Positions 7,158 through 60,556 of a stretch of 64,000 nt of DNA are shown piece after piece. Within the stretch, counting starts at the first letter, position 1. Each line of letters begins with the position of its first letter. Location: positions 32,001 to 96,000 of the IMG/VR virus record IMGVR_UViG_3300030047_000014; one strand, 5' to 3'. Made by a program: the position numbers and the translations under genes. This DNA comes from a virus. The notes beneath the pieces are model-generated. The model worked only from the letters and a program-made list of their open reading frames with translations. It was not told where the DNA came from and made no database searches.

Positions 7158-7880
7158 TTAAAGATTTTCGTTTATCCATTTCTCTAATCCATCACCTCCA
7201 GGAAAGAAAGTATTTCTTTTATATGATTGAACAACATGAATAGCTGTTCTCATCATTAATCTTTTAACTTCTTCTCTTGTCCAAGAATCTTTAATAGATT
7301 TGATATTGATAGTATTATCAGTAAGTTTTAATACTAATTTCTCTGATGGATTTCCTAACATGAAATTAGAAATATCATCTGAATGAATCTCTTCATATTC
7401 TACCATTACTTTCATAATAGGAGTATGATTGTTATAAGCCTCAATAAAGCTTTTAACAAAGGGATAAGTCATTTCAGCAAGATGAAGATTTGTATCAGTA
7501 GAAGCAATTATCTTTTTAGACCAATCAGGATTATATCCTACAAAGTCATTATTTTCAATACCAATCCATTTATTAAAAATGGAAGTACATTTATATAATG
7601 AATATACAGGAATACCATTATTCTGATCTTTTCTATCTCTATCATCAGTTACAAACCAATCACCTTCTTTAATCTCTTCATCAGAAGTAATATAAAGATG
7701 TTGAAAAGGAATTGCTGAAACAAAATCACCAAATTGTTGATGAAAAACATACATATCAACTAATTCTTTATCTACTAATTGAAGTTTATTGTTGTCACTT
7801 CTTGTAGAGATCATTCCAATTTGAGGTGCTTTTTCACTTATAGGAAGCAGTACACATCTACATTCTTTAAATATTGACAT
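7158..7880 (-). CDS. Hypothetical phage protein
   Basis: 240-aa ORF with QHLYITSDEEIKEGDW and KKIIASTD motifs. Confidence 0.8.
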   Translation of the reverse strand: MSIFKECRCVLLPISEKAPQIGMISTRSDNNKLQLVDKELVDMYVFHQQFGDFVSAIPFQHLYITSDEEIKEGDWFVTDDRDRKDQNNGIPVYSLYKCTSIFNKWIGIENNDFVGYNPDWSKKIIASTDTNLHLAEMTYPFVKSFIEAYNNHTPIMKVMVEYEEIHSDDISNFMLGNPSEKLVLKLTDNTINIKSIKDSWTREEVKRLMMRTAIHVVQSYKRNTFFPGGDGLEKWINENL

Positions 7881-7891
7881 AGTCTTTATTT

Positions 7892-8368
7892 TTAAAGTTT
7901 ATTTAATTCATTTATATATGCTTGAGCAGCATCTTCTTCTTTATTAAATCTTCCTAAGAATTTATTCTTACCATCAATTCTTATTTCACTCCTCCATTTT
8001 TTACAAGAAGATTCCCAAGAAACTCCTGTAAATGTAGAAGTACTTATACTATCTTTAGAGTTATTAACTCTTTGAGTAACTATTTGAAGATTCTTATAGT
8101 AGTTATTTAACTTATTATTATCTCTATGATCAACTACTAAATATCTACCATCTCTCTTTTGATCAAGAAAATAATCAGCAACTAGCAGATGTATAAGTAA
8201 GTGAAACTTCTTACCATTTTTTGATAAATGTGCTTGCAAATAACCATCTCCAACAATACTAGGTTTAAGAAGTTTTCCTCTTTTGTTTTTAATTCCTCCA
8301 TAATTAGAGATTTGATAAAATCCTTCATAACCTAGTATATCTTTCCATTCTTCGTAATCTTTATACAT
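7892..8368 (-). CDS. NUMOD4-HNH-AP2 homing endonuclease
   Basis: EEWKDILGYEGFYQISNYG (NUMOD4), HLLVA...VDHRDNNKLNN..NLQ...N (HNH), FTGVSW..KKWRSEI...LGRF..EEDAAQAY (AP2). Confidence 0.9.
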   Translation of the reverse strand: MYKDYEEWKDILGYEGFYQISNYGGIKNKRGKLLKPSIVGDGYLQAHLSKNGKKFHLLIHLLVADYFLDQKRDGRYLVVDHRDNNKLNNYYKNLQIVTQRVNNSKDSISTSTFTGVSWESSCKKWRSEIRIDGKNKFLGRFNKEEDAAQAYINELNKL

Positions 8369-8998: not shown

Positions 8999-9035
8999 AA
9001 AAAAGGTGCTCCTCTTATATAGAGAGAAACACCTT
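8999..9035 (-). terminator. Intrinsic terminator closing the tmRNA coding piece
   Basis: Minus strand AAGGTGTTTCTCT-CTATATA-AGAGGAGCACCTT followed by a T run. Confidence 0.8.
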
Positions 9036-9189
9036 AGTAAAAATGTACAACTCTAAGCTGCCATCTTCATTTCACTATTTTCGCCATTTACATGACAATA
9101 CCCATTTTATCAGTTAGTTATCTAAAATGATCTTTAGACTTCTATGATTAGAAACTACCATTTATCTGCTGTCAAAACCAGTCAGCCCC
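9000..9189 (-). ncRNA. ssrA: tmRNA coding piece (5' tRNA-like half plus tag reading frame) of a permuted two-piece tmRNA
   Basis: Starts GGGGCTGACTGGTTTTGACAGCAG at 9189; resume context TAAAT-GGC; tag GGC GAA AAT AGT GAA ATG AAG ATG GCA GCT TAG = GENSEMKMAA* at 9085-9053. Confidence 0.9.
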
Positions 9190-9199
9190 TAATAAATTT

Positions 9200-9452
9200 A
9201 AAAGTATGAAAGATAACATCTCTGTCTCCTTATTCAGTAATTGTGGTTATCTTAATGGTTGTCCTCTTGTGCACAGTTATCTCTAAGTTGAGCCTTTAGC
9301 TTACAATATTACTGATATACTTTCTATACTTTTTACTAATTGGCGATTAGTATGTGGAGTAGAAGTTTACTATATCTTGGCACTGGAGTTATCATGAATA
9401 ACCAGATATTAAAGAATACAATATTTGTCTTGCGAACAAATGAGCTTCTACT
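9200..9452 (-). ncRNA. Structured intervening segment between the tmRNA pieces (two folded domains)
   Basis: Closing stems AGTAGAAG/CTTCTACT (9452-9358) and AAAAGTAT-GAAAG/CTTTC-ATACTTTT (9333-9200) with internal helices; no minus-strand ORF in the track. Confidence 0.5.
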
Positions 9453-9454
9453 TT

Positions 9455-9517
9455 GTGGAGCTGAGGAGAATCGAACTCCTGTCCAAACAGTTTCCTTTAA
9501 TTTCAATGAATATTATA
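9455..9517 (-). ncRNA. ssrA: tmRNA acceptor piece (T-arm plus 3' acceptor strand) of a permuted two-piece tmRNA
   Basis: CTGTT-T-GGAC-AGGAG-TTCGATT-CTCCT-CAGCTCC-A; CAGCTCC pairs with GGGGCTG (G3.U70); CTGTT pairs with AGCAG; 5' end inferred from the promoter. Confidence 0.88.
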
Positions 9518-9523
9518 TTTTTA

Positions 9524-9531
9524 CAAAGATA
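9524..9531 (-). promoter_or_regulatory. Bacteroidota -7 promoter element upstream of the tmRNA acceptor piece
   Basis: TATCTTTG matches TAnnTTTG; no clean -33 TTTG seen. Confidence 0.55.
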
Positions 9532-9769
9532 TAACAAATTATTAGGACACCGCCTTCCCACGTCCAACCTTTTTGTAATATTAAAATGGTTGCAAAACTT
9601 ACTCCCTAAGTATTAAATTTGTGTCCAGGGCAATTATATCATTGACTGTTACTATTGCGTAGTAATTCAATAGATATTAAATATGTTTTTACAGGCTTTT
9701 TAAGCTCTCACATTCATAGTCGTCTCATAGCAGTTCTTTTTATTTAATATGACTATATAGTCATTGTTA

Positions 9770-9898: not shown

Positions 9899-9996
9899 AC
9901 TACTAACAGTTTTTCAATACATACCAGGAAAATAACAGCCACTACCAATGATATGGTAATGGCTGCAAAATAACTCTTAACTACATTTGTTTTCAT
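9895..9996 (-). CDS. Small single-TM protein (33 aa)
   Basis: MKTNVVKSYFAAITISLVVAVIFLVCIEKLLVV. Confidence 0.5.
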   Translation of the reverse strand: MKTNVVKSYFAAITISLVVAVIFLVCIEKLLVV

Positions 9997-9998
9997 AG

Positions 9999-11120
9999 CT
10001 AATCCTCCAACAAATAATCAGTATTAATGATAAGAGACAAATCTTCATTATATATCTGTAATTGTACAGGTATAAGCTTATCAATAAGCTCTTTGTCATT
10101 AAATGTGGTAAGCTTATGAGTGACACTATTTCCATTTATTTTGAGATAACCCTTTGATCGCCAAGCAGGTATATGTGTTCTTGCCTGAGACAATGGTAAT
10201 GTACGATAGTACACATAATGATCTGCATATCCTTTAGGTGCACCCTTAAAGGGAGCTAAGAATACTAACTGAAGGTTCTTAGTCCAATAGGACTGTTTAC
10301 CTGTCATTTGTAGTTTAGCTCTAGCCCAAGCACCTCCAAAATAAATAGAAAGTCTTTTCAAATAATCTTCCTTATTAAGATTAGGATACAGTTTCTCATA
10401 TGAAGAGAGATAATGATCTCTTTGTTCTAAAGGTATAATACCCTTCCAACCACTACTCATAAGTACTTTATAAGAATTCAACATCTCTACCATATCAGGA
10501 GCATACTTGATCATATTTTCAGATTCAATCAGGTATTCATAAATAAGAGCTGCAAGCTCATGATTAACCTTCTTAAATCTATCTGCATTCTCCATCTCAC
10601 TCTCAAGTATTACTCTAACAGAGCCATCAGGACATAGTATTTGAACAAGATTCTTGAAGTCATTTGAATAAGAATCAATATTTGCACTAATCATTGATTG
10701 ATTACCCTCAAGTGAGAATAATTCATAACCAGATGTATCTTCCACACGAATAACAATCTCCACACCATTAGGATAATATCTCTTTACTGCTTCAGATAAA
10801 CAAACCAGTCTTTGAATAGCAGATAGTTCTGCTATATCAATAGTAGCACTGAAATCACTCTTAATAGAGCCCCAGGGAACCATGATTGGTATTGCTGTAT
10901 TGTTGTTGATTGCCTCTCTTATTACATCTCTGATTACAACCAAGGATTCAGGTGTAGGCAAACAGCCATACCTTACCTCTTTTGTTCCTATTATCAGATT
11001 AGAGAGGATTTCAACTAAATCTGAGGAACTAAATGTAGCCACATTTGGAAATTGCTCATTAATGTGTAAGCATATCAAATCTCCATATGGCTCTTCAACT
11101 CCAATTATTCTTGTTTTCAT
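9999..11120 (-). CDS. PvcA/DIT1-like (isonitrile synthase family) protein
   Basis: AIPIMVPWGSIKS...IDIAELSAIQRLVCLSEAVKRYYPNGVEIVIRVEDTSG resembles the PvcA pattern PI.fvlPafP.KS...pDlAE.laL.rL..lc..i...YppGa.i.I.sDG. Confidence 0.65.
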   Translation of the reverse strand: MKTRIIGVEEPYGDLICLHINEQFPNVATFSSSDLVEILSNLIIGTKEVRYGCLPTPESLVVIRDVIREAINNNTAIPIMVPWGSIKSDFSATIDIAELSAIQRLVCLSEAVKRYYPNGVEIVIRVEDTSGYELFSLEGNQSMISANIDSYSNDFKNLVQILCPDGSVRVILESEMENADRFKKVNHELAALIYEYLIESENMIKYAPDMVEMLNSYKVLMSSGWKGIIPLEQRDHYLSSYEKLYPNLNKEDYLKRLSIYFGGAWARAKLQMTGKQSYWTKNLQLVFLAPFKGAPKGYADHYVYYRTLPLSQARTHIPAWRSKGYLKINGNSVTHKLTTFNDKELIDKLIPVQLQIYNEDLSLIINTDYLLED

Positions 11121-11172: not shown

Positions 11173-11421
11173 TTACCAATCATCACCTGCACCTGCTCCA
11201 CCAAATGAACCACCACCAAATTCAATATCATTAGAAGAACTAGAGATATCAACATCACCACCAATACTTCCAAAGATAACAGCAGCAATTCCCACATTGA
11301 GAATATCATCCACCAATGATTCCTCATGGTAATAATCATACTCTTCTTGTTCTAAATAGGACAAGGATTCATAGGTGACATCATTAATGACATCACCTGT
11401 TAATTTGTGTTTGTATTTCAT
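11173..11421 (-). CDS. Small acidic protein with Gly-rich FGGGSFGGAGAGDDW tail
   Basis: 82-aa ORF; tail resembles the C-terminus of TPM-domain proteins. Confidence 0.65.
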   Translation of the reverse strand: MKYKHKLTGDVINDVTYESLSYLEQEEYDYYHEESLVDDILNVGIAAVIFGSIGGDVDISSSSNDIEFGGGSFGGAGAGDDW

Positions 11422-13045: not shown

Positions 13046-13381
13046 ATGGAAAAACAAGAGTATAAAGTAAAGATGGTTTATCCTGATGATCCTTCAGACA
13101 TCACTAGGATATACACACAGACTATTCAAGGTTTTCTTTATTTTGCAAGAGAGTTAAAGATTAGTCCTAAGAGTAATGCTAGTTGGAATAAGAAAGGATT
13201 CAAAGTGGAATTCTTTGTTGACACTGTTAGTGTATCCATAGGAATAGGTAAAGATCATACTGCTGATCTTATTATGACTAAAGATGCATGGGATGCTTTC
13301 GTTGAGGGAGCTGAGATTTCTATTGATACTGTAAAAGAGTTTGAAGGAAAGTATATTAAAAGGAGAAAGAAGAATAAATGA
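13046..13381 (+). CDS. Hypothetical protein
   Basis: 111-aa ORF just downstream of the promoter. Confidence 0.75.
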   Translation: MEKQEYKVKMVYPDDPSDITRIYTQTIQGFLYFARELKISPKSNASWNKKGFKVEFFVDTVSVSIGIGKDHTADLIMTKDAWDAFVEGAEISIDTVKEFEGKYIKRRKKNK

Positions 13382-13740
13382 AATTCATAAAACATATCTC
13401 TTCTAGTAATAACTGGGGAGTCTCTATATTAATAATGGAGAGCAGAGGAAAAGCATTTGCCAGGATATATTGGTTTAATGATAAGGAAGAAGATGATGAG
13501 GAAGATACAGTCTATCTTGATATGCTTAGTGTAAATGAAGAAGAAAGAAGGAAAGGTATTGGTACTAAACTACAGGATATAAGAGAGAAGATTGGTAAAA
13601 GAGGAGGTGCTACATATTCTTGTCTTTGGGTATATAAGAATACATGGATGTATGAATGGTACAAGAGAAGAGGATATAAAGAGATAGGAAAGAATGAGAG
13701 TGAAAAGAATGCTGTTTGGATGAGAAAGAAATTAATTTAA
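13378..13740 (+). CDS. GNAT family N-acetyltransferase
   Basis: YLDMLSVNEEERRKGIGTKL (motif A, R/QxxGxG), WYKRRGY (motif B). Confidence 0.9.
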   Translation: MKFIKHISSSNNWGVSILIMESRGKAFARIYWFNDKEEDDEEDTVYLDMLSVNEEERRKGIGTKLQDIREKIGKRGGATYSCLWVYKNTWMYEWYKRRGYKEIGKNESEKNAVWMRKKLI

Positions 13741-47869: not shown

Positions 47870-50800
47870 ATGCCTATAAATGATTTAAGTCCTTTGACTG
47901 AAAACATACTACCAACAAGTAGACCTCAATCTGTAGGTAACTCAATTCCTAATCCATATATGGAAGGTAGTGGTAATGGTGATAGTGGAAGTAAACGTCC
48001 TGATTACTTACCTCCTCTTGCTTCAGGAAAGGATGAGATGCCTATTACAGCAACCTCTGGACAGTTGCATGATGCAAGAAAGTTTTCTGTCTTTGATCCT
48101 ACAAAGACAGAGAATGAGTTTGCTTATGGACAAGGATTTGTTTCTAAGATGGTTAGTGGTGTTGGTAAGGGATTATTACTTACAGGTACTACATTTCTAC
48201 AGACTACTGCAGGATTAATAAATGGTTTATATCAATGGAATAAAACAGGGAAAGCATCTTCTTTCTATGATAATCCTCTTAATAAATGGGTAGATGATGT
48301 AAATGCAGAAGCTGAGAACAGATTACCTAATCTTTACACAAATATTGAGAAAGATGCTAATTGGTATTCTCCTAAATATTTATTAACAGGTAATTTCTTA
48401 TGGGATGGTATTGTAAAGAATCTTGGATTCTCTGCAGGTGCTGCATTGTCAGGAATGGCATTTGCAGGAGCTTTAAGAGCTCTTCCTCTTACATCTAAGT
48501 TATTCTCTATTGGTAAAGGAGCTGAAGCTCTTGCAGCCACAGAAGAAGGAGTATCAGCATCTACAGCAGCAGGTAATGCTGCAGAAACTTATGGAAAGAT
48601 CAAAGAGCAATCTGATAAATTCTTAGGATCATTTAAATTACTAAATCCTGGTGGTAGAGCTTTAATAGCAGGTTTATCTACTTCTGGAGAAGCTAGTTTT
48701 GAGTCATATCAGAATCTTAATCAATTCAGGAATGATGAAATAAAGAAATATCAAGATACACATGATGGAGAGAAACCTACTGGAGAGGATCTTAAGAAGA
48801 TTAATGATAATGCAGAACATGTTGGAAATGTGTCCTATCTGTCTAATGTGGCTCTTCTTAGTGTTACTAATTATATACAGTTTCCTAAAATATTAGGATC
48901 TTCTTATAAAGCTGAGAAGGGAATGATTAATTCCTTAACCAAAGAAACAGGAGATATAATTGGAACAGAAGGAAAATATCTTGTAAAGCCTGCAGGAAAT
49001 AAGATTCTCTCAACTCTAAATAAGATTAGACCCTATACATTCTCTACTTCAGAAGGATTTGAAGAGGGTGCACAGTATGTAATTCAGGAAGGTACTCAGA
49101 ACTACTATGATAAAAAGTATAATAATACTCCAACTGATTTTCTAACCAGTCTTTTAGAAGGAGTTAAAAAGACTGTTGGTACTAATGAAGGTATGAAGAA
49201 TATCTTAATTGGTGGATTATCAGGATCTATAATGATGGGTAGAGGAAGGTTCAGAGAAAATAGTGAGAAAGATAGAAATACTCAGGAAGCTGTTACAGCA
49301 TTCAATAAAACTAAATTTTCTGATTTTACTCAGGAAACATTAGATGCTGTTAATAGAGGAACAACTCTTCAGGAAGAGAGAGAAGCTGCTCTAAAGAGTG
49401 GTGATATACTAAATAGTAAAGATAAAGAAGCTGATTATATAATCAACTATCTTACACCACGTATTAAATATGGGAGGTTTGATTTAATTAAATCAGATAT
49501 ATCTGATTATAAACAACTTGCAAGCACTGATGAAGGTTTTGCTCAATTACAATCTGAAGGTAAAGCCTTAACAACAGATACTAAGGAAGCTTATATTCAG
49601 AGATTATCTGCATTAGAAGCTACTGCTGAGAATGTAAAATCATTATATCAATCTCTTAATCTTCGATATGGTGCACAAATAGATGAAAAAGGTAAACCTA
49701 TCTACTCTCCTGCAGTTATGGACAAGATGGTTTATGCAGCATCTAAAGTAGCTGACTATGATAAACGAATTCCAGAATTAACTAATACATTAATACAAAG
49801 TAATATTGATGTTAATGCTGTAGTTAAAGATGTACTATTGGGTAAATCAGACAGTTTTAATGAAGCTATGGATTCTATCAGCAAGATGGATATCTTAGAT
49901 GAAGAAAAAACTTCTCTTAGTGAAGCTTTGGAAGATATAAGTGAACTTAGTCTTCGTAGAAATAAATTTCTAAAAGAATATACTGAGATAAAGAACAATC
50001 CTAAAAAATATCAGGAACAAAAAGCAGAAGATATCCAACCTCCTGTTGGTGAAGAGAATAGGATAATTGCTATTAAAACTAAGACAGGAGATAAGGAATT
50101 AACTATTGGTAAGGAGTACTTTATAGGTAAGGGATTTGACTATGATAAAGATGGTCTGGAGACTCCTGTTACTATTTCTAAACTTACTATTCTTAGTGAG
50201 AATGAGGATGGTACAATCAAAGTAAAAGGAAATAATGGTAAAGTAATGGATATATCTAAGGATCAATTACTTGACTATAAAGTTACACCTGCTGAACAAT
50301 TAAAAGCTAATAAGACTGCTAATTATTTCTTTAATCATAGGAATGAGTTGTTTGAGATTAATTTGGGTAAGAAATATGGTGGAAAGAAAACTGGTAGAAT
50401 TGAATTCAAAGAAGGCAAACTCTTTATTGTATATAAAGGAGTTAATGGCAAACTTATTCACAAAGAGATAAATAATAGTTTCTTTGTTCCTCAAAAGGAA
50501 TATAATGAACCAAGAATCAGAATTACAGGTAAAATTGAAACTGCAGAACAGAAAGTAGCCAGGGAAGAATTCACTTCAGCAAAAGAATTAGAGGCACAGA
50601 AACAAACTGCTTCTCAGAATAGAGATACACGTATTGAAATTCTGACACAGTTGTTTGATGATATCTCTACTAAGCAGGAAGATACCAATAAGTTACTGAC
50701 TCAGAAGAAATCTGAATTAACAAATATTAAAGAGGAATTATCTAAACTTGAGGAGAATATCCTTAATACTCAGAATGATGTAGATAAGAGATTTAAAAAA

Positions 50801-53800
50801 GTAACTTTCAGAGCTACTACCAGAAAAGCATTAGCTACTGCTTCTCGTTTGTCCAGAATGCAAGATCAGTTAGAAAAAGAGATAAAAGATCTTGAGACTC
50901 AGAGAGAAGAGTTAGATATTGATTTGTCTTATATTTCTGATATGGCTCAGAATATTGATGAGCTTCCTACAGATAGTAAGGAGTTTCTTAATGAGCTGAA
51001 ATCTCATAAAGCATTATTGGAAGATATGCTTCTTAATACAGAAATTCAAATTGAGGAGACTAACAACATTATTAGCAAGGTAAAGGCAGCTTTAGATTCA
51101 GCTATGGATTTCTTATCAGATGTGATAGGTAAGTTTCAGCAGAAGTTTCCTAAAGTTCCGCTTGCTCTTGGTAGTGAATGGATTGAGTTTCTAAAAAATA
51201 ATCCTAACTTTCTTAAGCGTAAACCTAACTATAAGGAAGAATTACAACAGCTTGATGATTTAGTAGCTCAAGTTGAGGATATGGATATTATTCCTGGGGA
51301 GCGTACTATAAAAGAATTAAATGAGAAACTTGCAGAATTACAGGAAGCCTTATCTCCACTAGAAAGAGAATTAAAAGCAAGTAATGTTATATTGGATAGG
51401 TTTAGGGAAATTGCTAAAAAATCCAGGGAAGTAAAAGCTGAAGAGAAAGCTATGTCTGTAAAGGATGAGTTTTTAAAAAAGGCTCTTGGTACAGATAAGA
51501 GTGGTATCCAGAACAGAGAATTTGATAAGGATTATGAGCCTGAGGCTAAGAAGCCTACAGAGTTCATATGGAGAAGTACTATCACAACAGGAGATAAACC
51601 TCATGCCATTAGATCTAATAAATTTGGAGCTAATCTGAATTCATTTCCTAATAGAGATAAAATACGTGGGGTATATATAACTTTTAAAAATGAAGATCAG
51701 ATACTACCAGGATTAATTGATCATTTAAGGACAGATGAAAATGGTAATGTAGACAACTCTATAAATAGAGAGGATGTCATTGTATTAGTAATGACTGATG
51801 AGGATGGTAATCTGATTGATGAAAATGGTAAACTTGTACAGAATAATGCTGACAAATTAAATACAGCTATATATCAAGTATTTCCAGAAGCTAAATTAGC
51901 TTGGAGTGAAAAGTATGGTAATGCATCAATGTTTAGGAAAGATACTCCTCAAGATGTAGTGGACTCTGTTAAGAAACAGTATGCTGATTGGAGAAAAGAT
52001 ATTTTAGAGAACACAACTGATTTAAGTAATAGTCATACTATTGATGCCTCTTTTGGATTTCCTGAGTATGAAACTGAACTGGATGAAAATCAAGTACCAC
52101 AGAGGATTTATTCTACTAAGACATCTGTACAAGAAGCAGGTTTGGTTACTGAAGATGAATTAGAAGCTTCTCCAGTAATTACTATTCCTACAACCAATAG
52201 TATTGTTGGTAAGGGCACTGTTTCCTTTACTAATGCTATTGGTAAAGTATTTCTTGAATTAAAGAATGGTCTGATACCACTACAGAATAGAAAACATACT
52301 AGTGAAGAGGCAGAGTTAATATATCAGTCTATCTATCACTTAGCTAAGAATATGCTTAAAGGTGAACTTAAGTCTGATGCTTCTGAGAACTTATTTAATT
52401 ATCTTCGATCAGTAGTCTATTGGGGAATTCCTACAGATCAACAAGGTAATAGAAAAGAGACTAAAGGATATAATAGTATCTTCTGGGAGAAAGATCCTGT
52501 ATCTGGAAAGTTCATGTTATCAATGTCAGGAAAAGGAATGAACTTTGTATTCACTCCTTCTGCACTGGAACAATATAAAGCAGATATAATTGCTATGTTA
52601 GAGGGGATGTATAATAACATTAACTCCTCTATGATTAAAGGTAATAATGCTATTAATGAGAAATATCATGAACCATTATCTATAAATGCTGATGGTACTT
52701 TCAATACAAGAGAATGGAATAACTACCAGACTTATTTGTTATCAAGTACAACTCCTGATGGTAAACCACGTAAAAACATTCCTCTTACTACATTAATGAA
52801 ACCTCTTGCTAATAAGGAAGATGTAAATAGAAAAGGAATATATTTTTATACTACTGATACAGCAGATGATATTGTTCTTCCTACTAAAAAACCTTTAGCA
52901 GCATCTAAAATGCTTCCAGGTAAATTACAGGAAGCTCTACAGAAAACACAAAAGTTTGTATTAGGTAGAAATAATTTAAATATATTTACTACAGATGCAG
53001 GAAAACAATTAAAGTTTATAGTTAGTGAGAAAGTTAATGCTAATAACTTTATGCAGGAGATTAGTATTCTTCAAGGCGGTGATCTTGTAGAATTAATGGA
53101 TATTATTAAAAAAGCAGGATTAGATCCTGCAAAGGTTCTTAAAAGACGTATATTTAAAGCACTTGAGCCTCAATTAAATGATACAAATACTGAAGAGAAA
53201 GAAGATATCTTTAGAGTTCCTGATGATGAGGATGATACTAAAATACCTACACAGAAAGATAATAGAAAAACATCTAATGAAGATGATGAAGAGATGGAAG
53301 TCTTTCATGTTCCAGATGATATAGATGAGGATATTAAGAAGGCTTTAAATCGTGTGTCTAATGATTCTGATTTAGCAGCAACTCGTCTTGTTTTAAAACA
53401 GATGTTAGATGATTATAAAGAAGAGGACTGGACTAAAATAGAACAATGGTTAAGAAATAATTTTCCTAACTTTCCTTTCTATAGGGTAAAGAATGTAATC
53501 CAGGTTACTAATGGAAGACAAGCTTGGGGTATGTTCAAACAGGCTGCTTTGTATGTATATCAACATGCAGAATCAGGTACATCATATCATGAGGTCTTTC
53601 ATGCAGTATGGAGGATGTTCGTAGGTCCAGATGAACAATCTGCTATTGAAGATGAATTCACTTCCAGAAAAGGTAGTTTTATTGATAGAGCTACACAGAA
53701 GACAATAAAATACTCAGATGCTAATGCTAAAGAAATAGATGAGAAATTAGCAGAAGAATTTAGAAATTATATTCAGGAAGGTAAAATCCCTGGTAAACCA

Positions 53801-56800
53801 GAGAAAGGAAGACCATTTATTCTTAAAATGTTTATAGACTTGGTAAAGTTTATTAAAACCTTCTTTGTTGGAAATGAAGGTATTAGTAATACAGAAAATC
53901 TATTTAAGCATATAAATGAGGGATACTATAAAAAAGTAATTCCTTACACAGCAAGTTTATCCTTGGCTAATAAAGGTATAATAAATATTAATAATGCAAT
54001 TGCTACTACAGAAGACAATCTCAGTGTAGTATCTATCACAGATAAACAACGTAGTGATATTATTCAGGAAATGACTTATCAAACTCTCAAGGAATTGATA
54101 GAGTCTGATAAGAGTTTATTTACTGTTCCTAATTTAAAGAAATCAGAATTATATAGTAGACTGAAATCCAAGTTACTAGATACTCTTAGTAGAGATATAA
54201 AGAATTCTAAGAAACTAATTGCTAAAGGAGAATTTACAGAGAATCAATTAGCTCCTTTAATGTATGAACGTCTTTCATTAATGCAAAATGTTGCTACACA
54301 ATGGGATGCTATAGTTGCTAAGCATCAGGAGTATCTTAGGGGATATTCTATTGAGTTTGATGATAATGATAGTCTTCAGATAAATGATGAGGATAAGATC
54401 AAAAATAGTGATTTTGTAGATGCTACTAAAATAGATAGCTTTAAGAAAGCTAATAGTGCTATTAAACTACTCCTGGCAACTTTACCAAAGGTAGATGGAA
54501 ATAATAGATTAATACCATCTTCTATTGGTGGAGCACAATTACTCCCTATAAGTCAGACCTATATTAGTCTGATGAATAGGTTATATAACTCTAAGAGTAT
54601 TGAAGATATGATGTCCAGACTTAAGGATATGGCTACTAATGATGTAAATTACAGAACATTATACAAACGTCTTACTAAATCAGACTGGAAAACTAAAGGA
54701 ATAGATATTAGTAAGATCAATACTACTTATGGTGCACAACTCCTTGGTTCTTTCTGGAAGACATTCAAGAAACAAAATCCAGATGTAAAGAATGTATTTA
54801 TATTTGAGAATGGTGAGATAGTTATAGGAGATAGTAATTTATCGAGTGTAGCTAGTCAACTTAGAAATGAATATATTAATGACATTATCCTAACAGCAAA
54901 GAAGGATAATAGTTATTTTAAATATGATGAAAAGGAAAAAGTATTCAGAGGAGATGCTGTTGCTATCAAAAATGTAAAACTAGATACATTAACATCCTAC
55001 TCAGAATTTCTTAATAAACTTGGTATTGTATTTACTGTACCTCAGATCCAGAAATTAGGTTCTCATCTAAAAGATTTCAAGGAGACTGTTTCAGGTATAC
55101 GAGCTAGTATTGCTGCAAATGAAAAAATTGCAACATTTTCTGGTAAGGTTTTAAATATTAATGGTCGTCTGCTTGAACTTGGTATTGCTAAAGCAGTTAT
55201 TGATAATCCTGAATTTGATAGTACTTTCTTTAATGTTACTGGTGAACGTACTCAATCATTTATTGGTGTTAATCCTGCTGATGCCTTATATAACTTTCTC
55301 TCTTCAATTGAGAAATTTGATGATGCTAATGTTCTTGACAGCGAATATAGATATCTTAAAACAGATGCTTTCGCAAAAGGTTCCAATATTCTACAAAGAA
55401 TGTTTACTTCTGAAGGTACACGTAAACATGGTTCTGAGGATCTTATGAAAGTAGGGTATGTTAGTGGTACTATTGATGAGAAGAAAGGTAAACAGAAAGC
55501 ATCTGCCAGATTAAACTATAAAGAAAGACTTATTCAGGAGATCAATCTTAATCTAAAAGGATGGTATCTTAATTTAGTTCCTGCTGATGCAACTATGGAG
55601 TGGATGCTTAATACTGGGAATGCTATATCAGTAGCCTCTATATCTAAAGGACTTTCTGATGTAAATGCTATCTTTAAGAATTACTTCATCTCCGAGATGG
55701 ATCTTGTTAAGGATAATAGGAAGATCAATAGCCATAGAGATGCTAAGGAAGCAAAAGAAATGAGGTTCTTTAAATCTATTCTTGGAGAAGAACTACATAA
55801 TAAGATAGTTAAAGATAAAAGAGACTCTGAAGAAATATATGCTGATTATGAATCTAAGATAAACTCTGCCCTGGAGAAATATATTAATAATGAAACTTCT
55901 AAGTTTCAGAAGAATTTAACTACTTGGGGAGTATTAACTGAGGATGATCTTGGTCATACCTTGGAGAATATTAATCTTCCAGAGAATATGTCTATGGAAG
56001 AATTAGTTAGACAATTGAAAGCTCTTACAATTAATTTTATGATTTCTAATATTGAAATGCATAAACTACTGTATGCAGATCCTTATCAATACTATCAGGA
56101 ATTAAAACGTATTAAGAACTTCAATTCACCTAGGCAGACTCTTATTAATAACTCTCCTCAGATGAATGCAGTATTTAATTCTGTTTGGAATGAGAATTAT
56201 AAAAAAGGAGATATTGGATATACTAACTTTCGTCAAGATTACTTTAGATCAGCTACTCATAAAGATACCTTTGGGGTAATTGATTTACTTGGATATACAG
56301 ATTTTGAAGAGACGGATGGTGCAGGTATTATTGGAATGAGAGCATATCGCCAGTTTAGAATTAGAAGTGGAGATTGGAACGATAATGAAGAAAGTCAATA
56401 TAGGTATGATATAGCCTGGGAGAAGAGAGATAAAGATTTTTCATTGTCTGCCAGTGAGGTAGCATTATTAGAAAAAGGAAATCCTGCTATTCAAAGTGCA
56501 TATGTTAATATTAAACCTATTGTAGCAGGTAATAGACTGAATAGTAAGGGAAATGCAAATGATATCAATGATGTCTTATTGGATAAGTTTGCTCTATATC
56601 CTCTATCATATCGTATTATGAAAGAGATAAATCCTAATGCAAATGCTATAAAGCTTTATGATAAAATGCAGAAGGAAGATATTGATTATATGGTATTTGA
56701 GAAAAGTAGAGTAGTAGGTGCAAGAGATCCTCATGATACATATAATGCTGATGGTTCTTTTAATACTAAGCCATATTCCGGGGAGAATGTGATCAATGTA

Positions 56801-59800
56801 CCTTTTAGTATCATGAGTGTACAATCTGAAGTACCATCAAAAGAGAAAGCTCTTACTACACGTGGATCCCAGATTACAAAACTTGTAACTATGGACTTTA
56901 TGGAAGCAGGTGTTCCACTTGATTTTGATAAAGAAAGTAGTTTCTTAAATAGATATAAGGCTTGGTATAAACTATCTGAAGATCAGAAATTAGCAACTTC
57001 TCCTTTATATAAAGATATAATGAATAATCAGGATCTCCTTGAGTTAATGATGGAGCATGGTTATCAAACTCTTCTTAATAGGTTGGGTATCAAGGAAAGT
57101 AATGGTAAATTTAGTATTGAAGATTTATCCGATGCTGTTTCTACTCTTAGGGAGGAAGTATTAAAAAGAGAAGTAAATGACAACATTAGTGATGCTCTTA
57201 CAGGTTTCTTGGAGGGTCAGTCTATTCTTGAGGCTACTCCTGCGTATCAGCAGATAAGGAATATTCTTTATTCAATTGCTGATAAAGAGATTATATCCCC
57301 TAAAATTAGTGGAGGTATGAAAGTACAAATTCCTTCTACAATGATGGAATCTGTTAGAGCAGAAGAAACTACTATTAATGGTAAGAGAGGATTTACCTCT
57401 GACTTCCTAAACTTCTATAAAGATGAAGATGGAAAGAGAGTATGTGAAATAATGATAGGTAGATGGTTTAAGAGTAGTATGTCTGATGCTGAGTTACTTG
57501 ACTATTTGAATAACTCAGAAGAAGGTAAATCTATTCTATCTGGTTTAGGATTTCGTATTCCTACCCAGAAACAGAACTCAATCGATAATTTTGTTATTAA
57601 ACAATTCCTTCCTAAAGAGTTTGGTGATTCTGTTGTTATACCTGCAGCACTTGTACAGAAAGCAGGATCTGACTTTGACATTGATAAATTATCAGTCTAC
57701 TTAAAAAACATCTTCAAAGATGTCAATGGAGACATTAGATTAGTTTCATACAAAGGATCTGAGAAAGCTACTAAGGATTATTATAGTGAAGTATTCTCGG
57801 ATAAAATTGAGAAACAAATAGAAAACCTTGAGAAACAGGATGATAAGAATGACATGATAATGGATGTCATGAGTAAGCTAGAAACTCTTCCAGATATCAC
57901 TATATCTTCAGCTAAAGCTGTATTGGGTAAAGAGGAATATCATTTCTATGCTAATAACTTAGATCTACTTTATGATATACTTGAAAGAGCTGATGAACAG
58001 GAGATTTCTGGTACTGAGTATATTCAGGGCAGATTAAATGAGTCTGGTGAGAAGAAAGCAGAATTATTTACAAAACTATTACTTGAGGATTTAAGAAAAG
58101 GGTACATAGATAGGATGTATAAAAAATCCTTAGAGAATGCTTATATTCAATCCTCTCAGAATCTCGTATCTCATAAGCTTAATTTTGACAAGCTTATTAA
58201 ACCTAACTCTGCAGACCAAATGAAGAAATTATCAGCAGAGATTGCAAAGAAGACTCTAGGTTCTACTTTTGATTATAATGATGTAGGTAATATGCTAGAT
58301 AGGGGATTTATGTCCAGACTTAGACATGCTTTTGTATCTGGTAAGTATGCTATTGGTATAGCCGCTGTAAATCAGACTAATCATTCCCTGAATCAAAGAC
58401 AACCTATCTACATTGATAAAAATAGATTCAATAAGCTTAGTGAGGAAGATAAGTACTGGTTAGTAGATGGTGAAGTAAGATTTGATAAATTTAATAGAAT
58501 TGAAGTTAATGGTAAGATAGTACCTACATTATCTATGATTAAGAATGTAGATGGTCAGTATATATCTGATATCATCTCTCAGTTTATTGATGGATATGTG
58601 GATATTGCTAAAGGTCCTTGGATTATGGAATTAGGAGCTACACCTAATGTTGCTTCAACCTTTATGTTCCTGGCTAAATTAGGAGTTCCTATTGATACTG
58701 TATCTTATTTTATGAATCAACCTATTATTCGTGATTATCTATCTAAGATTAGTAATGCAGGGTACTCATGGTTATTCATTGATAATTTCGTTGAGGAGTT
58801 AAAACAAGATGCTAAATGGTCTGTTGATGATCGTAAGGAAGCTGATTTAGAAACAGTTGGATTTAAAGGGATGGGTTTAAATCAAATTCCTAGTAAATCT
58901 ACATTAAAAAATAATATTGGGAAAGAGGATTTTAATGCACAGGAGAGATTAGAACAACGCTTTATTCTTCAGGAATTTCTAAAGTATGCTAAGATGGCTG
59001 AGCATATGTTCTTGGTTACACAGGGATCTAATTTTGATACTGCTAACTTCAACGATCCATATCTTGTATTTAAGAAATTTAAACAGTTAGAGAAGGCTCA
59101 GAATACAATCATTAGTGATGTGAATACTCTTTTGAATAACTCTTTCGTAGGACAGCTTAGTGAGACTATTAAGAAAACAAGAAATGCTTTGGCTACTATT
59201 CTTAAATCAGATCAGGATAATGTTAGAAGAGTTATTCAGAAAGTATTGGAGCCTTATGTCAATATGAACAATAATGACTTTGTTAAACTTGCTCAGAAGG
59301 CTGTTAATGATTTATTTGACTGGGCTGTTCAAACAGGAGATGAGAAGTTAAATGCTGATATTCGTAATGTATTGATTACTAATGGTGGTGTGGGTGCAGA
59401 AGTTATGGAGTTTGTAAATAGTATTAAAGTTAATTCTTCTCATCCTCTGCATGATAATCATGTCATTAATATTATACAGGCAATACCATCACCAAGGGCA
59501 GAACAAGGAGGAGTTAATAATCTGAAAGTAAAAGGTACAGACAATAAGGTTTATGACCAGAATAATATTATATATGGGTTTAGAGAGATAAGAGAGTATT
59601 TAAAAGACAAAAATAGTAAGTTATATGATAGGATTAAATTACTTGCTGTATTACAGAGTGGTTTGTCTAATTCAGCTATTTCCTTTACCTCACTTCTACC
59701 ATATGAAGATTTTGCAGAATTATATAATAAAACTTTGTCTAGTTTAGAGAAACTTCCTAATTTAGAGGAGTTTTTCAAGCTTGGTGTGTTTGAGAGAAAT

Positions 59801-60556
59801 AATTGGAATAATGATGATATAATCCCATATACTAAAGCCAGAATAATTAAAACAGCAAGTAGATCCTATTATAATCCTGCGATGGAATTTCTGGATAAAA
59901 ATGTAAAAGAAGCTGTAAGGAATAAAAAAATTCCTCCAGTAATGACTTTATCTACTCGTAATAGGGAAGCTAATTCTGATCATATAGTATTTACATGGGA
60001 GAAACAAGAAGACTTACTAACTGAAGCTGAAAAGTCAGAAGCTAATAAGAATAGAACTTCTTTCTATAAAGCTGTACAACAGAAGAAATTAAATATGAGG
60101 AAGATAGGAGATTACTCTTTTATACAGAAGGGCTTATTCAAGAAAATATATGATAACTTTGGAACTGCTCTTCAGACTACAGATAAAAAAGGTACTCCTT
60201 ATTTTGTATACAAGGCTATTAATGCCTGGGGAGATAGTTATAGAGCTAATGAATTCTATACAACTGATCATCATTCTGTAATTGAGAATGGTTTTATTAA
60301 GGTGGAAGATGTTGATAATAATAGGATTATAGATTTATTTAATAAAGAAGAAAAAACAACTGCAGTATCTTCTTTAAAAAGAAATGAGTTATTAGAAGAT
60401 TATTCTCAGAAAACAGGAGAGATTCTTGGAGTAGTACCTATAAAAACTCTTAAAGATGGTAAAACATATACGTTTGCTCAAATAAATAGTAAGATGCTTG
60501 AGGAGATGAAATATACTCCTAATCAAATAGGTGAAATTTTAAAATCAATCTGTTAA
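47870..60556 (+). CDS. Virion RNA polymerase polyprotein (two-barrel RNAP with zincin-like domain)
   Basis: TDGAG (~56311), GFRIPTQKQNS (~57550), catalytic GSDFDIDK (DFDID at 57671-57685); HEVFH (53588-53602) ...EKLAEEF zincin; N-terminal hydrophobic and coiled-coil region. Confidence 0.92.
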   Translation: MPINDLSPLTENILPTSRPQSVGNSIPNPYMEGSGNGDSGSKRPDYLPPLASGKDEMPITATSGQLHDARKFSVFDPTKTENEFAYGQGFVSKMVSGVGKGLLLTGTTFLQTTAGLINGLYQWNKTGKASSFYDNPLNKWVDDVNAEAENRLPNLYTNIEKDANWYSPKYLLTGNFLWDGIVKNLGFSAGAALSGMAFAGALRALPLTSKLFSIGKGAEALAATEEGVSASTAAGNAAETYGKIKEQSDKFLGSFKLLNPGGRALIAGLSTSGEASFESYQNLNQFRNDEIKKYQDTHDGEKPTGEDLKKINDNAEHVGNVSYLSNVALLSVTNYIQFPKILGSSYKAEKGMINSLTKETGDIIGTEGKYLVKPAGNKILSTLNKIRPYTFSTSEGFEEGAQYVIQEGTQNYYDKKYNNTPTDFLTSLLEGVKKTVGTNEGMKNILIGGLSGSIMMGRGRFRENSEKDRNTQEAVTAFNKTKFSDFTQETLDAVNRGTTLQEEREAALKSGDILNSKDKEADYIINYLTPRIKYGRFDLIKSDISDYKQLASTDEGFAQLQSEGKALTTDTKEAYIQRLSALEATAENVKSLYQSLNLRYGAQIDEKGKPIYSPAVMDKMVYAASKVADYDKRIPELTNTLIQSNIDVNAVVKDVLLGKSDSFNEAMDSISKMDILDEEKTSLSEALEDISELSLRRNKFLKEYTEIKNNPKKYQEQKAEDIQPPVGEENRIIAIKTKTGDKELTIGKEYFIGKGFDYDKDGLETPVTISKLTILSENEDGTIKVKGNNGKVMDISKDQLLDYKVTPAEQLKANKTANYFFNHRNELFEINLGKKYGGKKTGRIEFKEGKLFIVYKGVNGKLIHKEINNSFFVPQKEYNEPRIRITGKIETAEQKVAREEFTSAKELEAQKQTASQNRDTRIEILTQLFDDISTKQEDTNKLLTQKKSELTNIKEELSKLEENILNTQNDVDKRFKKVTFRATTRKALATASRLSRMQDQLEKEIKDLETQREELDIDLSYISDMAQNIDELPTDSKEFLNELKSHKALLEDMLLNTEIQIEETNNIISKVKAALDSAMDFLSDVIGKFQQKFPKVPLALGSEWIEFLKNNPNFLKRKPNYKEELQQLDDLVAQVEDMDIIPGERTIKELNEKLAELQEALSPLERELKASNVILDRFREIAKKSREVKAEEKAMSVKDEFLKKALGTDKSGIQNREFDKDYEPEAKKPTEFIWRSTITTGDKPHAIRSNKFGANLNSFPNRDKIRGVYITFKNEDQILPGLIDHLRTDENGNVDNSINREDVIVLVMTDEDGNLIDENGKLVQNNADKLNTAIYQVFPEAKLAWSEKYGNASMFRKDTPQDVVDSVKKQYADWRKDILENTTDLSNSHTIDASFGFPEYETELDENQVPQRIYSTKTSVQEAGLVTEDELEASPVITIPTTNSIVGKGTVSFTNAIGKVFLELKNGLIPLQNRKHTSEEAELIYQSIYHLAKNMLKGELKSDASENLFNYLRSVVYWGIPTDQQGNRKETKGYNSIFWEKDPVSGKFMLSMSGKGMNFVFTPSALEQYKADIIAMLEGMYNNINSSMIKGNNAINEKYHEPLSINADGTFNTREWNNYQTYLLSSTTPDGKPRKNIPLTTLMKPLANKEDVNRKGIYFYTTDTADDIVLPTKKPLAASKMLPGKLQEALQKTQKFVLGRNNLNIFTTDAGKQLKFIVSEKVNANNFMQEISILQGGDLVELMDIIKKAGLDPAKVLKRRIFKALEPQLNDTNTEEKEDIFRVPDDEDDTKIPTQKDNRKTSNEDDEEMEVFHVPDDIDEDIKKALNRVSNDSDLAATRLVLKQMLDDYKEEDWTKIEQWLRNNFPNFPFYRVKNVIQVTNGRQAWGMFKQAALYVYQHAESGTSYHEVFHAVWRMFVGPDEQSAIEDEFTSRKGSFIDRATQKTIKYSDANAKEIDEKLAEEFRNYIQEGKIPGKPEKGRPFILKMFIDLVKFIKTFFVGNEGISNTENLFKHINEGYYKKVIPYTASLSLANKGIININNAIATTEDNLSVVSITDKQRSDIIQEMTYQTLKELIESDKSLFTVPNLKKSELYSRLKSKLLDTLSRDIKNSKKLIAKGEFTENQLAPLMYERLSLMQNVATQWDAIVAKHQEYLRGYSIEFDDNDSLQINDEDKIKNSDFVDATKIDSFKKANSAIKLLLATLPKVDGNNRLIPSSIGGAQLLPISQTYISLMNRLYNSKSIEDMMSRLKDMATNDVNYRTLYKRLTKSDWKTKGIDISKINTTYGAQLLGSFWKTFKKQNPDVKNVFIFENGEIVIGDSNLSSVASQLRNEYINDIILTAKKDNSYFKYDEKEKVFRGDAVAIKNVKLDTLTSYSEFLNKLGIVFTVPQIQKLGSHLKDFKETVSGIRASIAANEKIATFSGKVLNINGRLLELGIAKAVIDNPEFDSTFFNVTGERTQSFIGVNPADALYNFLSSIEKFDDANVLDSEYRYLKTDAFAKGSNILQRMFTSEGTRKHGSEDLMKVGYVSGTIDEKKGKQKASARLNYKERLIQEINLNLKGWYLNLVPADATMEWMLNTGNAISVASISKGLSDVNAIFKNYFISEMDLVKDNRKINSHRDAKEAKEMRFFKSILGEELHNKIVKDKRDSEEIYADYESKINSALEKYINNETSKFQKNLTTWGVLTEDDLGHTLENINLPENMSMEELVRQLKALTINFMISNIEMHKLLYADPYQYYQELKRIKNFNSPRQTLINNSPQMNAVFNSVWNENYKKGDIGYTNFRQDYFRSATHKDTFGVIDLLGYTDFEETDGAGIIGMRAYRQFRIRSGDWNDNEESQYRYDIAWEKRDKDFSLSASEVALLEKGNPAIQSAYVNIKPIVAGNRLNSKGNANDINDVLLDKFALYPLSYRIMKEINPNANAIKLYDKMQKEDIDYMVFEKSRVVGARDPHDTYNADGSFNTKPYSGENVINVPFSIMSVQSEVPSKEKALTTRGSQITKLVTMDFMEAGVPLDFDKESSFLNRYKAWYKLSEDQKLATSPLYKDIMNNQDLLELMMEHGYQTLLNRLGIKESNGKFSIEDLSDAVSTLREEVLKREVNDNISDALTGFLEGQSILEATPAYQQIRNILYSIADKEIISPKISGGMKVQIPSTMMESVRAEETTINGKRGFTSDFLNFYKDEDGKRVCEIMIGRWFKSSMSDAELLDYLNNSEEGKSILSGLGFRIPTQKQNSIDNFVIKQFLPKEFGDSVVIPAALVQKAGSDFDIDKLSVYLKNIFKDVNGDIRLVSYKGSEKATKDYYSEVFSDKIEKQIENLEKQDDKNDMIMDVMSKLETLPDITISSAKAVLGKEEYHFYANNLDLLYDILERADEQEISGTEYIQGRLNESGEKKAELFTKLLLEDLRKGYIDRMYKKSLENAYIQSSQNLVSHKLNFDKLIKPNSADQMKKLSAEIAKKTLGSTFDYNDVGNMLDRGFMSRLRHAFVSGKYAIGIAAVNQTNHSLNQRQPIYIDKNRFNKLSEEDKYWLVDGEVRFDKFNRIEVNGKIVPTLSMIKNVDGQYISDIISQFIDGYVDIAKGPWIMELGATPNVASTFMFLAKLGVPIDTVSYFMNQPIIRDYLSKISNAGYSWLFIDNFVEELKQDAKWSVDDRKEADLETVGFKGMGLNQIPSKSTLKNNIGKEDFNAQERLEQRFILQEFLKYAKMAEHMFLVTQGSNFDTANFNDPYLVFKKFKQLEKAQNTIISDVNTLLNNSFVGQLSETIKKTRNALATILKSDQDNVRRVIQKVLEPYVNMNNNDFVKLAQKAVNDLFDWAVQTGDEKLNADIRNVLITNGGVGAEVMEFVNSIKVNSSHPLHDNHVINIIQAIPSPRAEQGGVNNLKVKGTDNKVYDQNNIIYGFREIREYLKDKNSKLYDRIKLLAVLQSGLSNSAISFTSLLPYEDFAELYNKTLSSLEKLPNLEEFFKLGVFERNNWNNDDIIPYTKARIIKTASRSYYNPAMEFLDKNVKEAVRNKKIPPVMTLSTRNREANSDHIVFTWEKQEDLLTEAEKSEANKNRTSFYKAVQQKKLNMRKIGDYSFIQKGLFKKIYDNFGTALQTTDKKGTPYFVYKAINAWGDSYRANEFYTTDHHSVIENGFIKVEDVDNNRIIDLFNKEEKTTAVSSLKRNELLEDYSQKTGEILGVVPIKTLKDGKTYTFAQINSKMLEEMKYTPNQIGEILKSIC

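Follow-up and report, generated by a model that had tools for sequence, protein, structure and literature searches.

A divergent, stand-alone PvcA/IsnA/DIT1-superfamily gene of uncultivated phages, recurrently near tmRNA and tRNA genes

What does a relative of the isonitrile synthases do in a phage? So far as we know, isonitrile synthases of the PvcA/IsnA/DIT1 type have been described only in secondary-metabolite clusters of bacteria and fungi, in which they are accompanied by an oxygenase. The question is raised by a 64,000-nucleotide stretch of viral DNA (hereafter the window, i.e., positions 32,001 to 96,000 of the IMG/VR virus record IMGVR_UViG_3300030047_000014), in which an original prediction, made from the letters alone, had picked out a divergent gene of this kind. 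A literature search covering titles and abstracts returned no paper on a phage-encoded member of the superfamily. Here, we report that the encoded protein is a soluble, stand-alone member of the IsnA/PvcA/DIT1 superfamily with a Rossmann fold like that of tyrosyl-tRNA synthetase (TyrRS), and that it belongs to a large, previously undescribed subfamily in uncultivated phages. This subfamily comprises several hundred sequence clusters, has a partly rebuilt active site, and is encoded non-randomly near transfer RNA (tRNA) and transfer-messenger RNA (tmRNA) genes. The reading that we prefer, to which sequence and structural models lead us with roughly even confidence, is that the protein would be an active enzyme applying amine-carbonyl chemistry of the PvcA type to altered substrates, in a translation-related genomic context.

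The gene and its phage genome

The gene in question lies on the minus strand of the window, as established from the listing of open reading frames (ORFs) and from its motifs:

9999-11120 (-): divergent PvcA/IsnA/DIT1-superfamily gene, ATG start, 373 amino acids (aa), 42.6 kDa, isoelectric point (pI) 5.4

The ORF listing bears out the predicted reading frame, and all four motifs by which it had been recognized (PIMVPWGSIKS, DIAELSAIQRL, YYPNGVEIVIRVED and HIPAW) are present in the 373-aa ORF. The G+C content of the window and of the gene region is ~30-33%, and since the region has ~33% G+C and the protein has 66 homologues (see below), the frame is no chance ORF. That the gene is phage-encoded also holds, as the source record, 120,747 bp long and with a CheckV completeness estimate of 100%, carries genes for a large terminase, a portal, a major head protein, and tail proteins. 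The PvcA-like gene is found on a leftward arm made up mostly of small unannotated genes, from which a rightward structural arm diverges at ~12.9-13.0 kb. At least half of the words sampled from the stretch occur in five sequencing runs beyond three possible source runs; these five carry the label peat metagenome, with no RNA run among them.

The phage protein is a remote homologue of PvcA and PIsnA

Searched on its own with phmmer against the PDB, the protein returned noise only (MetRS, E 0.13), and a scan of PHROGs gave nothing meaningful (top phrog_12975, E 0.034). BFVD yielded no viral PvcA-like model, its top matches being giant-virus TyrRS (E 6e-4). A 5.8-billion-protein index provided 66 relatives (E 6e-184 to 2e-39, 73-32% identity, nearly all 350-382 aa), every one of them unnamed or "hypothetical," with a precomputed PF05141 label on three. 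We aligned the query with 41 of these relatives (alignment A1, 42 sequences). Matched against PDB sequences, the A1 profile found PIsnA (9dhm, 4e-4; 9dh4, 7e-4) and PvcA (3e59, 6e-3), and 35 of its 42 sequences matched PF05141 (E<=0.1; lowest E 2e-6). In the Atlas, PF05141 is assigned to part of the members of 27 of the 30 nearest clusters.

The structural comparison points the same way. An AlphaFold2 model built on A1 has a mean predicted local distance difference test (pLDDT) of 95.5 and a predicted template-modeling score (pTM) of 0.91. When this model was searched with Foldseek, PIsnA (3e-9) and PvcA (2e-7) took the top ranks (range 3e-9 to 9e-7), followed by TyrRS and TrpRS and by cyclodipeptide synthases (CDPS, E 1e-3), so that, as far as the fold is concerned, no unrelated structure came out on top. 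VIA-align superposed 278-280 residues with a root mean square deviation of 3.5-3.9 Å and Z scores of 19.6 for both PIsnA entries (9dh4 and 9dhm) and 19.5 for PvcA (3e59), the best fold outside this group being TyrRS with Z 10.2 (TyrRS range 8.6-10.2). The phage protein and the L-Tyr/L-Trp isonitrile synthases PvcA (Pseudomonas aeruginosa, 3E59) and PIsnA (9DH4/9DHM/9DHN) thus share the same fold over ~280 residues, with the same order of secondary structures, at 12-16% identity. In contrast to both, the phage protein has ~45 extra N-terminal residues that include an invariant arginine, R50.

For a comparison of family with family, we searched 401 Bacteroidota genomes with PF05141, which gave two canonical genes, and used the domain of one of them (L023) to collect 2,778 canonical proteins. 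Aligned with hhalign, A1 and a set of 15 canonical sequences (A2) matched with 94.8% probability (E 5e-8). With 199 family rows against 121 canonical rows, the match rose to 96.8% (E 2.3e-10) over 244 columns; five of the 203 proteins considered for this larger family profile were dropped for length. As judged from sequence profiles and predicted structures, the remote homology to the PvcA/IsnA isonitrile synthases is real, and the claim is sound because it draws on the PDB matches of the A1 profile, the PF05141 matches, the AlphaFold2, Foldseek, and VIA-align results, the Atlas, and hhalign. The predicted kinship and TyrRS-like Rossmann fold are thereby upheld.

As for yeast DIT1 and the fungal isocyanide synthases, they were compared by family only, belonging to the same Pfam family as the weak match of the phage protein. 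DIT1 and the fungal enzymes act on tyrosine-type substrates; DIT1 yields N-formyl tyrosine and works with the cytochrome P450 (P450) DIT2.

With TyrRS, TrpRS, and CDPS, the phage protein has in common the architecture of a Rossmann-type catalytic domain, and a genomic context rich in tRNA genes is a further likeness noted beside class Ic synthetases and tRNA-dependent CDPS. Their presence among the structural matches raises the possibility that the protein is a very divergent aminoacyl-tRNA synthetase or CDPS and no relative of PvcA, which we regard as the least probable explanation. The match to these proteins is far weaker than that to PvcA, with Z scores of 19.5-19.6 for PvcA and PIsnA and at most 10.2 for any synthetase. 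Moreover, in contrast to class Ic synthetases, the phage family has no anticodon-binding domain and no corresponding Pfam match, PF00579 (tRNA-synt_1b) not being among the 12 families matched by the 42 A1 members at E<=0.1, and neither HIGH nor KMSKS is seen in A1.

A large family in uncultivated phages

Against 1.84 billion proteins, the A1 profile matched 700 cluster representatives (50% identity) at E<=1e-3, of which 530 were at <=1e-10 and 395 at <=1e-30. A tblastn search of 50,697 GenBank phage records with three divergent family members gave zero matches. The loci that we gathered comprise 19 viral, one bacterial-genome, and 70 metagenome loci; their G+C content spans 30-66%, and the hosts are therefore diverse. 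The bacterial genome came from a pattern scan of 185,579 species, in which the one matching record is a 10-kb contig of a Bacteroidota metagenome-assembled genome, and the family profile had no match in 400 other genomes of Bacteroidota. Restriction of the family to phages is likely but not proven.

The putative active site is partly kept and partly rebuilt

Among 199 family sequences, the residues conserved at 95% or more are R50, G52, P55, G84, K87, D95, A97, E98, G119, E127, D128, Y151, E173, G224, W225, Y241, Y260, R306, W320, R321, and G324, and H316, R267, Y237, and T307 follow at 93-95%. In the secondary structure of the model, K87 comes after strand 1, and the next helix begins with D95 and E98; strand 2 is followed by E127 and D128, strand 3 by E173, and strand 5 by R306, with W320 and R321 in the loop after that. 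As modeled, the invariant residues would sit at the usual place of a Rossmann-type active site.

Comparison with the canonical enzymes, whose residues are numbered by the L023 domain, reveals which parts of that site are shared. At 9 of the 61 canonical positions with a conservation of 95% or more, the same residue is kept (in at least 84% of the phage family), namely P82, K87, D95, E98, Y116, G119, Y151, G227, and W320. Features common to the phage family and PvcA/PIsnA are accordingly a Lys after strand 1 (K87, canonical K57), a D-x-x-E motif (D95 and E98, canonical D70 and E73), a Tyr in the helix after strand 2 (Y151, canonical Y120), a Gly (G227, canonical G184), and a Trp in the loop after strand 5 (W320, canonical W264). 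When the strands are put in ungapped register past the conserved Gly, E127 falls opposite canonical D102 and E173 within one residue of canonical E142. If the strands do align without gaps, an acidic residue after strand 2, E127 in place of D102, is likely to be shared with the canonical enzymes.

The rest of the site differs. Replaced in the phage family are canonical S58, K63, C100, R104, R154, R187, R236, S238, H240, K248, and H265, and instead of the canonical second-shell residues there is a family-specific set, consisting of R50, R125, Y237/Y241/Y260, R306, H316, R321, and K323. In the N-terminal motifs (canonical PAFPxKSPN...KVL and PDMAE), both families have an invariant Lys, Asp, and Glu, whereas the Ser, K63, and the Pro/Phe differ and the loop after the Lys is five residues shorter. 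The canonical CSDG(R/H)VF motif after strand 2 reads R-V-E-D-T-S-G in the phage family, with Cys, Gly, and Arg/His gone. Of the C-terminal motifs (RF..ED, QRS.AW, RLSIHPQ, S.K.GI, and WLTPWHG), W264, equivalent to W320, is alone in being fully kept (1.00); W223 (W279) and P241 (P295) are kept at 0.74, H265 has become R321, and R187, R236, S238, H240, and K248 are unconserved. Both crystallized enzymes, PvcA and PIsnA, and the 121 canonical sequences have CSDG(R/H)VF, RF..ED, RLSIHPQ, S.K.GI, and TPWHG. The divergence first noticed from the letters (WGSIKS for FPxKS, and VED for SDG) is therefore genuine, and the position of E127 opposite D102 fits the earlier wording "ED instead of SDG."

These residues bear on what the protein would do. 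Because K87, D95, E98, Y151, and W320 match invariant canonical residues, its chemistry is probably of the IsnA kind, i.e., a primary amine would condense, with no cofactor, with a carbonyl of the ketose-phosphate type. With a family-specific set standing in for the canonical second-shell residues, a substrate pair or a product other than the Tyr/Trp isonitrile would be expected.

The loss of most canonical catalytic-site residues could also mean that the protein is a non-catalytic binder or sponge (for an amino acid, a sugar phosphate, or a signalling molecule) that reuses the PvcA pocket, its proximity to tRNA genes reflecting a hot spot for accessory genes. The surroundings of the gene would suit such a protein, with HNH endonucleases and small unannotated ORFs of the sort found in plastic regions. 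However, some 20 polar or aromatic positions reach 95% conservation or more across the 199 sequences (down to ~30% identity), and they lie at strand ends as in an active site, which makes a mere binder quite improbable.

The gene has no partner enzyme

The original prediction had found no partner enzyme in the window, and this extends to the whole genome, in which TauD (the PvcB type), 2OG-FeII_Oxy_3, and P450 are all absent. TauD is absent from all six phage genomes searched, i.e., this one and five other family-bearing records, three of the five being at least 94% complete. The phage gene thus differs from those of PvcA and PIsnA, since it stands on phage contigs with no oxygenase partner and often beside tRNA or tmRNA genes, and from DIT1, in that there is no P450 in this phage to take the part of DIT2.

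We surveyed 116 flanking ORFs from 15 non-redundant loci and scanned the 71 of at least 100 aa against Pfam and PHROG. Among these 71 proteins, each Pfam or PHROG family occurs once at most, and no oxygenase or P450 family is present among the families listed for them (the first 25 per tally); families seen once include QueC, dCTP deaminase, FMN reductase, GT2, HNH, and helicases. Clustering of the flanking ORFs by BLAST revealed no partner across lineages, clusters forming only within groups of near-identical phages. The neighbourhood survey thus gave no recurrent protein neighbour, and what does recur is proximity to tRNA and tmRNA genes.

The protein could instead be a true isonitrile synthase, since the best structural and sequence matches are all isonitrile synthases and the Lys, the Asp-x-x-Glu motif, the Tyr, and the Trp are retained. 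Such an enzyme would use L-Tyr or L-Trp (or another amino acid) and ribulose-5-phosphate and release a free alpha-isocyano acid or a formamide as a metal- or haem-binding inhibitor or a signal, its adjacency to tRNA genes being coincidental. An amino acid and a pentose phosphate are available in every host, which suits a stand-alone gene in phages of 30-66% G+C. We nevertheless find this explanation doubtful, although it is the strongest of the alternatives, as five canonical motifs (CSDG(R/H)VF, RF..ED, RLSIHPQ, S.K.GI, and TPWHG) are replaced in the phage family, no PvcB/IsnB or P450 partner is found in the genomes searched, the scores fall under the curated family cut-offs, and the linkage to RNA genes is left unexplained.

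Several neighbours are recorded here for their own sake. A protein shared between the tmRNA and the PvcA-like gene in two of the loci discussed below (L002 and L006) was ruled out, the intervening proteins being unrelated (one an FMN reductase, the other without a family). Between the PvcA-like gene and the tRNA array of L002 (9375-11983, +) lie a 604-aa DUF2828/DUF7788 protein and a 263-aa DUF7873 protein. One PHROG match among the neighbours is labelled "RNA-binding protein," in a tally that does not tie the label to a protein. HNH endonuclease genes are present near the PvcA-like/tmRNA region in two unrelated phages (window 7892-8368, -; L006 9399-9866, +), which is consistent with a plastic region prone to mobile elements.

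The gene recurs near phage tmRNA and tRNA genes

Downstream of the PvcA-like gene and on the same strand, the window contains the following features:

9935-9966 (-): terminator-like hairpin of 13 pairs followed by a T-rich tail, ~30 nt past the stop codon of the PvcA-like gene
9036-9559 (-): tmRNA-like gene, apparently two-piece (permuted), 440 bp downstream of the PvcA-like gene
~9453-9496 (-): T-arm and 3' acceptor strand, within the tmRNA-like gene
~9170-9190 (-): 5' acceptor strand, within the tmRNA-like gene
9053-9088 (-): tag-like frame, by translation, ending ...NGENSEMKMAA-stop
9003-9035 (-): terminator-like hairpin after the tmRNA-like gene

Neither ARAGORN nor Rfam at its gathering score calls an RNA gene in the window. 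In E-value mode, Rfam places RF04321 at 9159-9496 (-) with 38.6 bits (E 5.5e-6), which is below the gathering score of 47, and the standard tmRNA model RF00023 at 9453-9559 (-) with 25.7 bits. In the Rfam output, the two acceptor strands form seven pairs, the third of which is G-U, beside the T-arm, and a minimum-free-energy fold pairs the same two strands and forms the T hairpin. The genome has no tRNA. The PvcA-like gene had been placed just upstream of a tmRNA cluster; a tmRNA-like gene is indeed there, as a single sub-threshold gene and not a cluster. The two hairpins come from a consensus scan that found six terminator-like sites in the region, against a mean of 1.8 (standard deviation 1.6) in shuffled sequence.

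Beyond this genome, the PvcA-like gene is recurrently near phage tmRNA and tRNA genes, at distances from 8 bp to ~2-3 kb, a proximity that is reported here as new. The linkage is real but partial. In three genomes, this one and two others (G003 and G004), the only tRNA-like gene is a neighbour of the PvcA-like gene: the sole tRNA of G003 (locus L012), a complete 100.7-kb genome, lies 468 bp downstream of the gene, and that of G004 (L013), a 104-kb record, 2.0 kb downstream. At L002 (43% identity), a tmRNA scoring 75.5 bits, above the gathering score, is found ~0.86 kb upstream, and an array of 17 tRNAs lies 3.4 kb downstream. At L006 (39% identity), a tmRNA scoring 137.5 bits, which ARAGORN also calls, is found 1.28 kb upstream; the 28 tRNAs of this 223-kb genome are in arrays elsewhere, the nearest ~10 kb from the gene. 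A scan of all loci with ARAGORN adds the lineage of L068, in which the gene lies inside a tRNA array that also holds a tmRNA, with the nearest tRNA at 8 bp, and other lineages with the nearest tRNA at 359 bp (L038), 495 bp (L036), 860 bp (L071), and 2.8 kb (L058). Under a null of uniform position, Fisher combination gave p 2.5e-4 when applied to the three genomes with a single RNA and p 8e-6 when applied to six genomes, one of which is G005, where the two are not adjacent.

Some of these RNA genes are unusual in themselves. The sole tRNA of G003 (L012 9530-9613, +) has 20 nt in place of the expected 7-nt anticodon loop, scoring 51 bits with Rfam and receiving no call from ARAGORN; the loop could be an intron or an expanded loop. 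At L019, the PvcA-like gene is preceded, at ~0.7 kb, by a type-P5 twister ribozyme (7193-7252, +) that scores 54.2 bits against a gathering score of 37.6. In the tRNA arrays of gut phages like that of L002, ARAGORN finds one long-arm tRNA with a four-base (ttag) or otherwise odd anticodon, whose slot holds tRNA-Ser(aga) in sister contigs:

L004 12610-12704: long-arm tRNA with four-base (ttag) or odd anticodon
L003 12569-12661: long-arm tRNA with four-base (ttag) or odd anticodon
L042 10298-10392: long-arm tRNA with four-base (ttag) or odd anticodon
L050 12054-12148: long-arm tRNA with four-base (ttag) or odd anticodon

A proposed active enzyme in a translation-related context

Taken with the residues described above, the location of the gene bears on the reading that we prefer. 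As the gene is placed in the tRNA/tmRNA neighbourhoods of phages, it suggests that the enzyme would work in a translation-related context, with an RNA, or the aminoacyl group that it carries, as a possible substrate. Of the roles put forward in the original prediction, the one tied to tRNA gains backing from comparative genomics, and a metal-chelating metabolite is conjectural. Because this is a divergent, stand-alone family often found beside phage tRNA/tmRNA genes, its chemistry may differ from the textbook reaction.

A number of observations weigh against parts of this reading, and we gather them here. On the side of homology, the window protein itself scores 14.5 bits with Pfam PF05141 (DIT1_PvcA), under the gathering cut-off of 26.4 (E 0.025, residues 91-125 only), and 12.3 bits with the NCBIfam equivalog NF045653 (TyIsonSynPvcA; cut-off 600, E 0.058). 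In the hhalign alignment, the C-terminal half is of low confidence. On the side of chemistry, the residues are placed at strand ends by the secondary structure of two models, and with 9 of 61 canonical positions kept, we infer even the type of chemistry. On the side of distribution, the Atlas label of the nearest clusters is mainly "Bacteria," which speaks against strict phage restriction. On the side of linkage, we defined lineages at 60% identity by single linkage and counted those with at least 8 kb of flank (n=27): the nearest tRNA-like gene is within 3 kb in 8 of them and at 5-7.5 kb in 2, and there is none in 17. For four of these 17 (L035, L014, L019, and L016), no tRNA-like RNA was found even at Rfam E<=0.01, and in G005 the tmRNA is ~27 kb from the gene. 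Furthermore, accessory genes are known to accumulate in the tRNA regions of large phages, and the uniform null, which ignores this clustering, is generous. Finally, the median pI of the family is 6.3, the same as that of the canonical enzymes, with no basic shift of the kind that an RNA binder might show.

Under a more radical explanation, the enzyme would depend on tRNA or tmRNA. It would turn the free alpha-amino group of an aminoacyl-tRNA, or that of Ala-tmRNA, into an isonitrile or formamide cap, or draw its amino acid from aminoacyl-tRNA in the manner of CDPS, and in this way the phage would change translation or ribosome rescue. In support, three divergent lineages have a tmRNA next to the gene, two genomes have their only tRNA there, and in another a tRNA array surrounds the gene. 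The fold goes back to class Ic aminoacyl-tRNA synthetases (TyrRS Z ~10), and CDPS, which are also tRNA-dependent, are among the Foldseek matches (E 1e-3). In addition, the loss of several canonical basic residues and the gain of R50, R306, R321, and K323 would fit a substrate with an esterified carboxylate. On the other hand, the adjacent tRNAs carry a range of anticodons (Val, Pro, Phe, Leu, His, and Gln), the 17 lineages out of 27 have no tRNA-like gene nearby, and neither an RNA-binding domain nor a fusion was found. Fused forms of greater length (721-2055 aa) were sought and none turned up, which by the search's own account is weak evidence; neither the median pI nor this absence of fusions speaks for RNA binding, and neither excludes it. 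To our knowledge, no member of the PvcA family uses tRNA. We therefore hold dependence on tRNA or tmRNA to be unlikely, less so than a mere binder and more so than a true isonitrile synthase. If it were true, phages would have a new route for reprogramming translation or ribosome rescue, and the superfamily would have its first RNA-linked member.

An active enzyme with PvcA-type chemistry on altered substrates, the reading that we prefer, would have consequences of its own. If the protein is active, phages may make isonitrile-type metabolites during infection, or else the fold may support a new, possibly translation-linked reaction. Either outcome, if true, would widen the known scope of this enzyme class, and the gene is a tractable single-gene target for biochemistry.

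Other features of the locus

Upstream of the PvcA-like gene, separated from it by 52 bp, is an 82-aa ORF (window 11173-11421, -) with a Gly-rich, acidic C-terminal tail ending GGGSFGGAGAGDDW. A link between the two through a peptide precursor was considered and dropped, since by eye there is nothing like the 82-aa ORF in 21 other loci.

Further away, the window encodes a small protein with a DnaA C-terminal helix-turn-helix domain (652-1071, -) and a GNAT-type acetyltransferase (13378-13740, +). In the structural arm, a single ORF of 4,228 aa spans 47870-60556 (+), and it is followed by further large ORFs.

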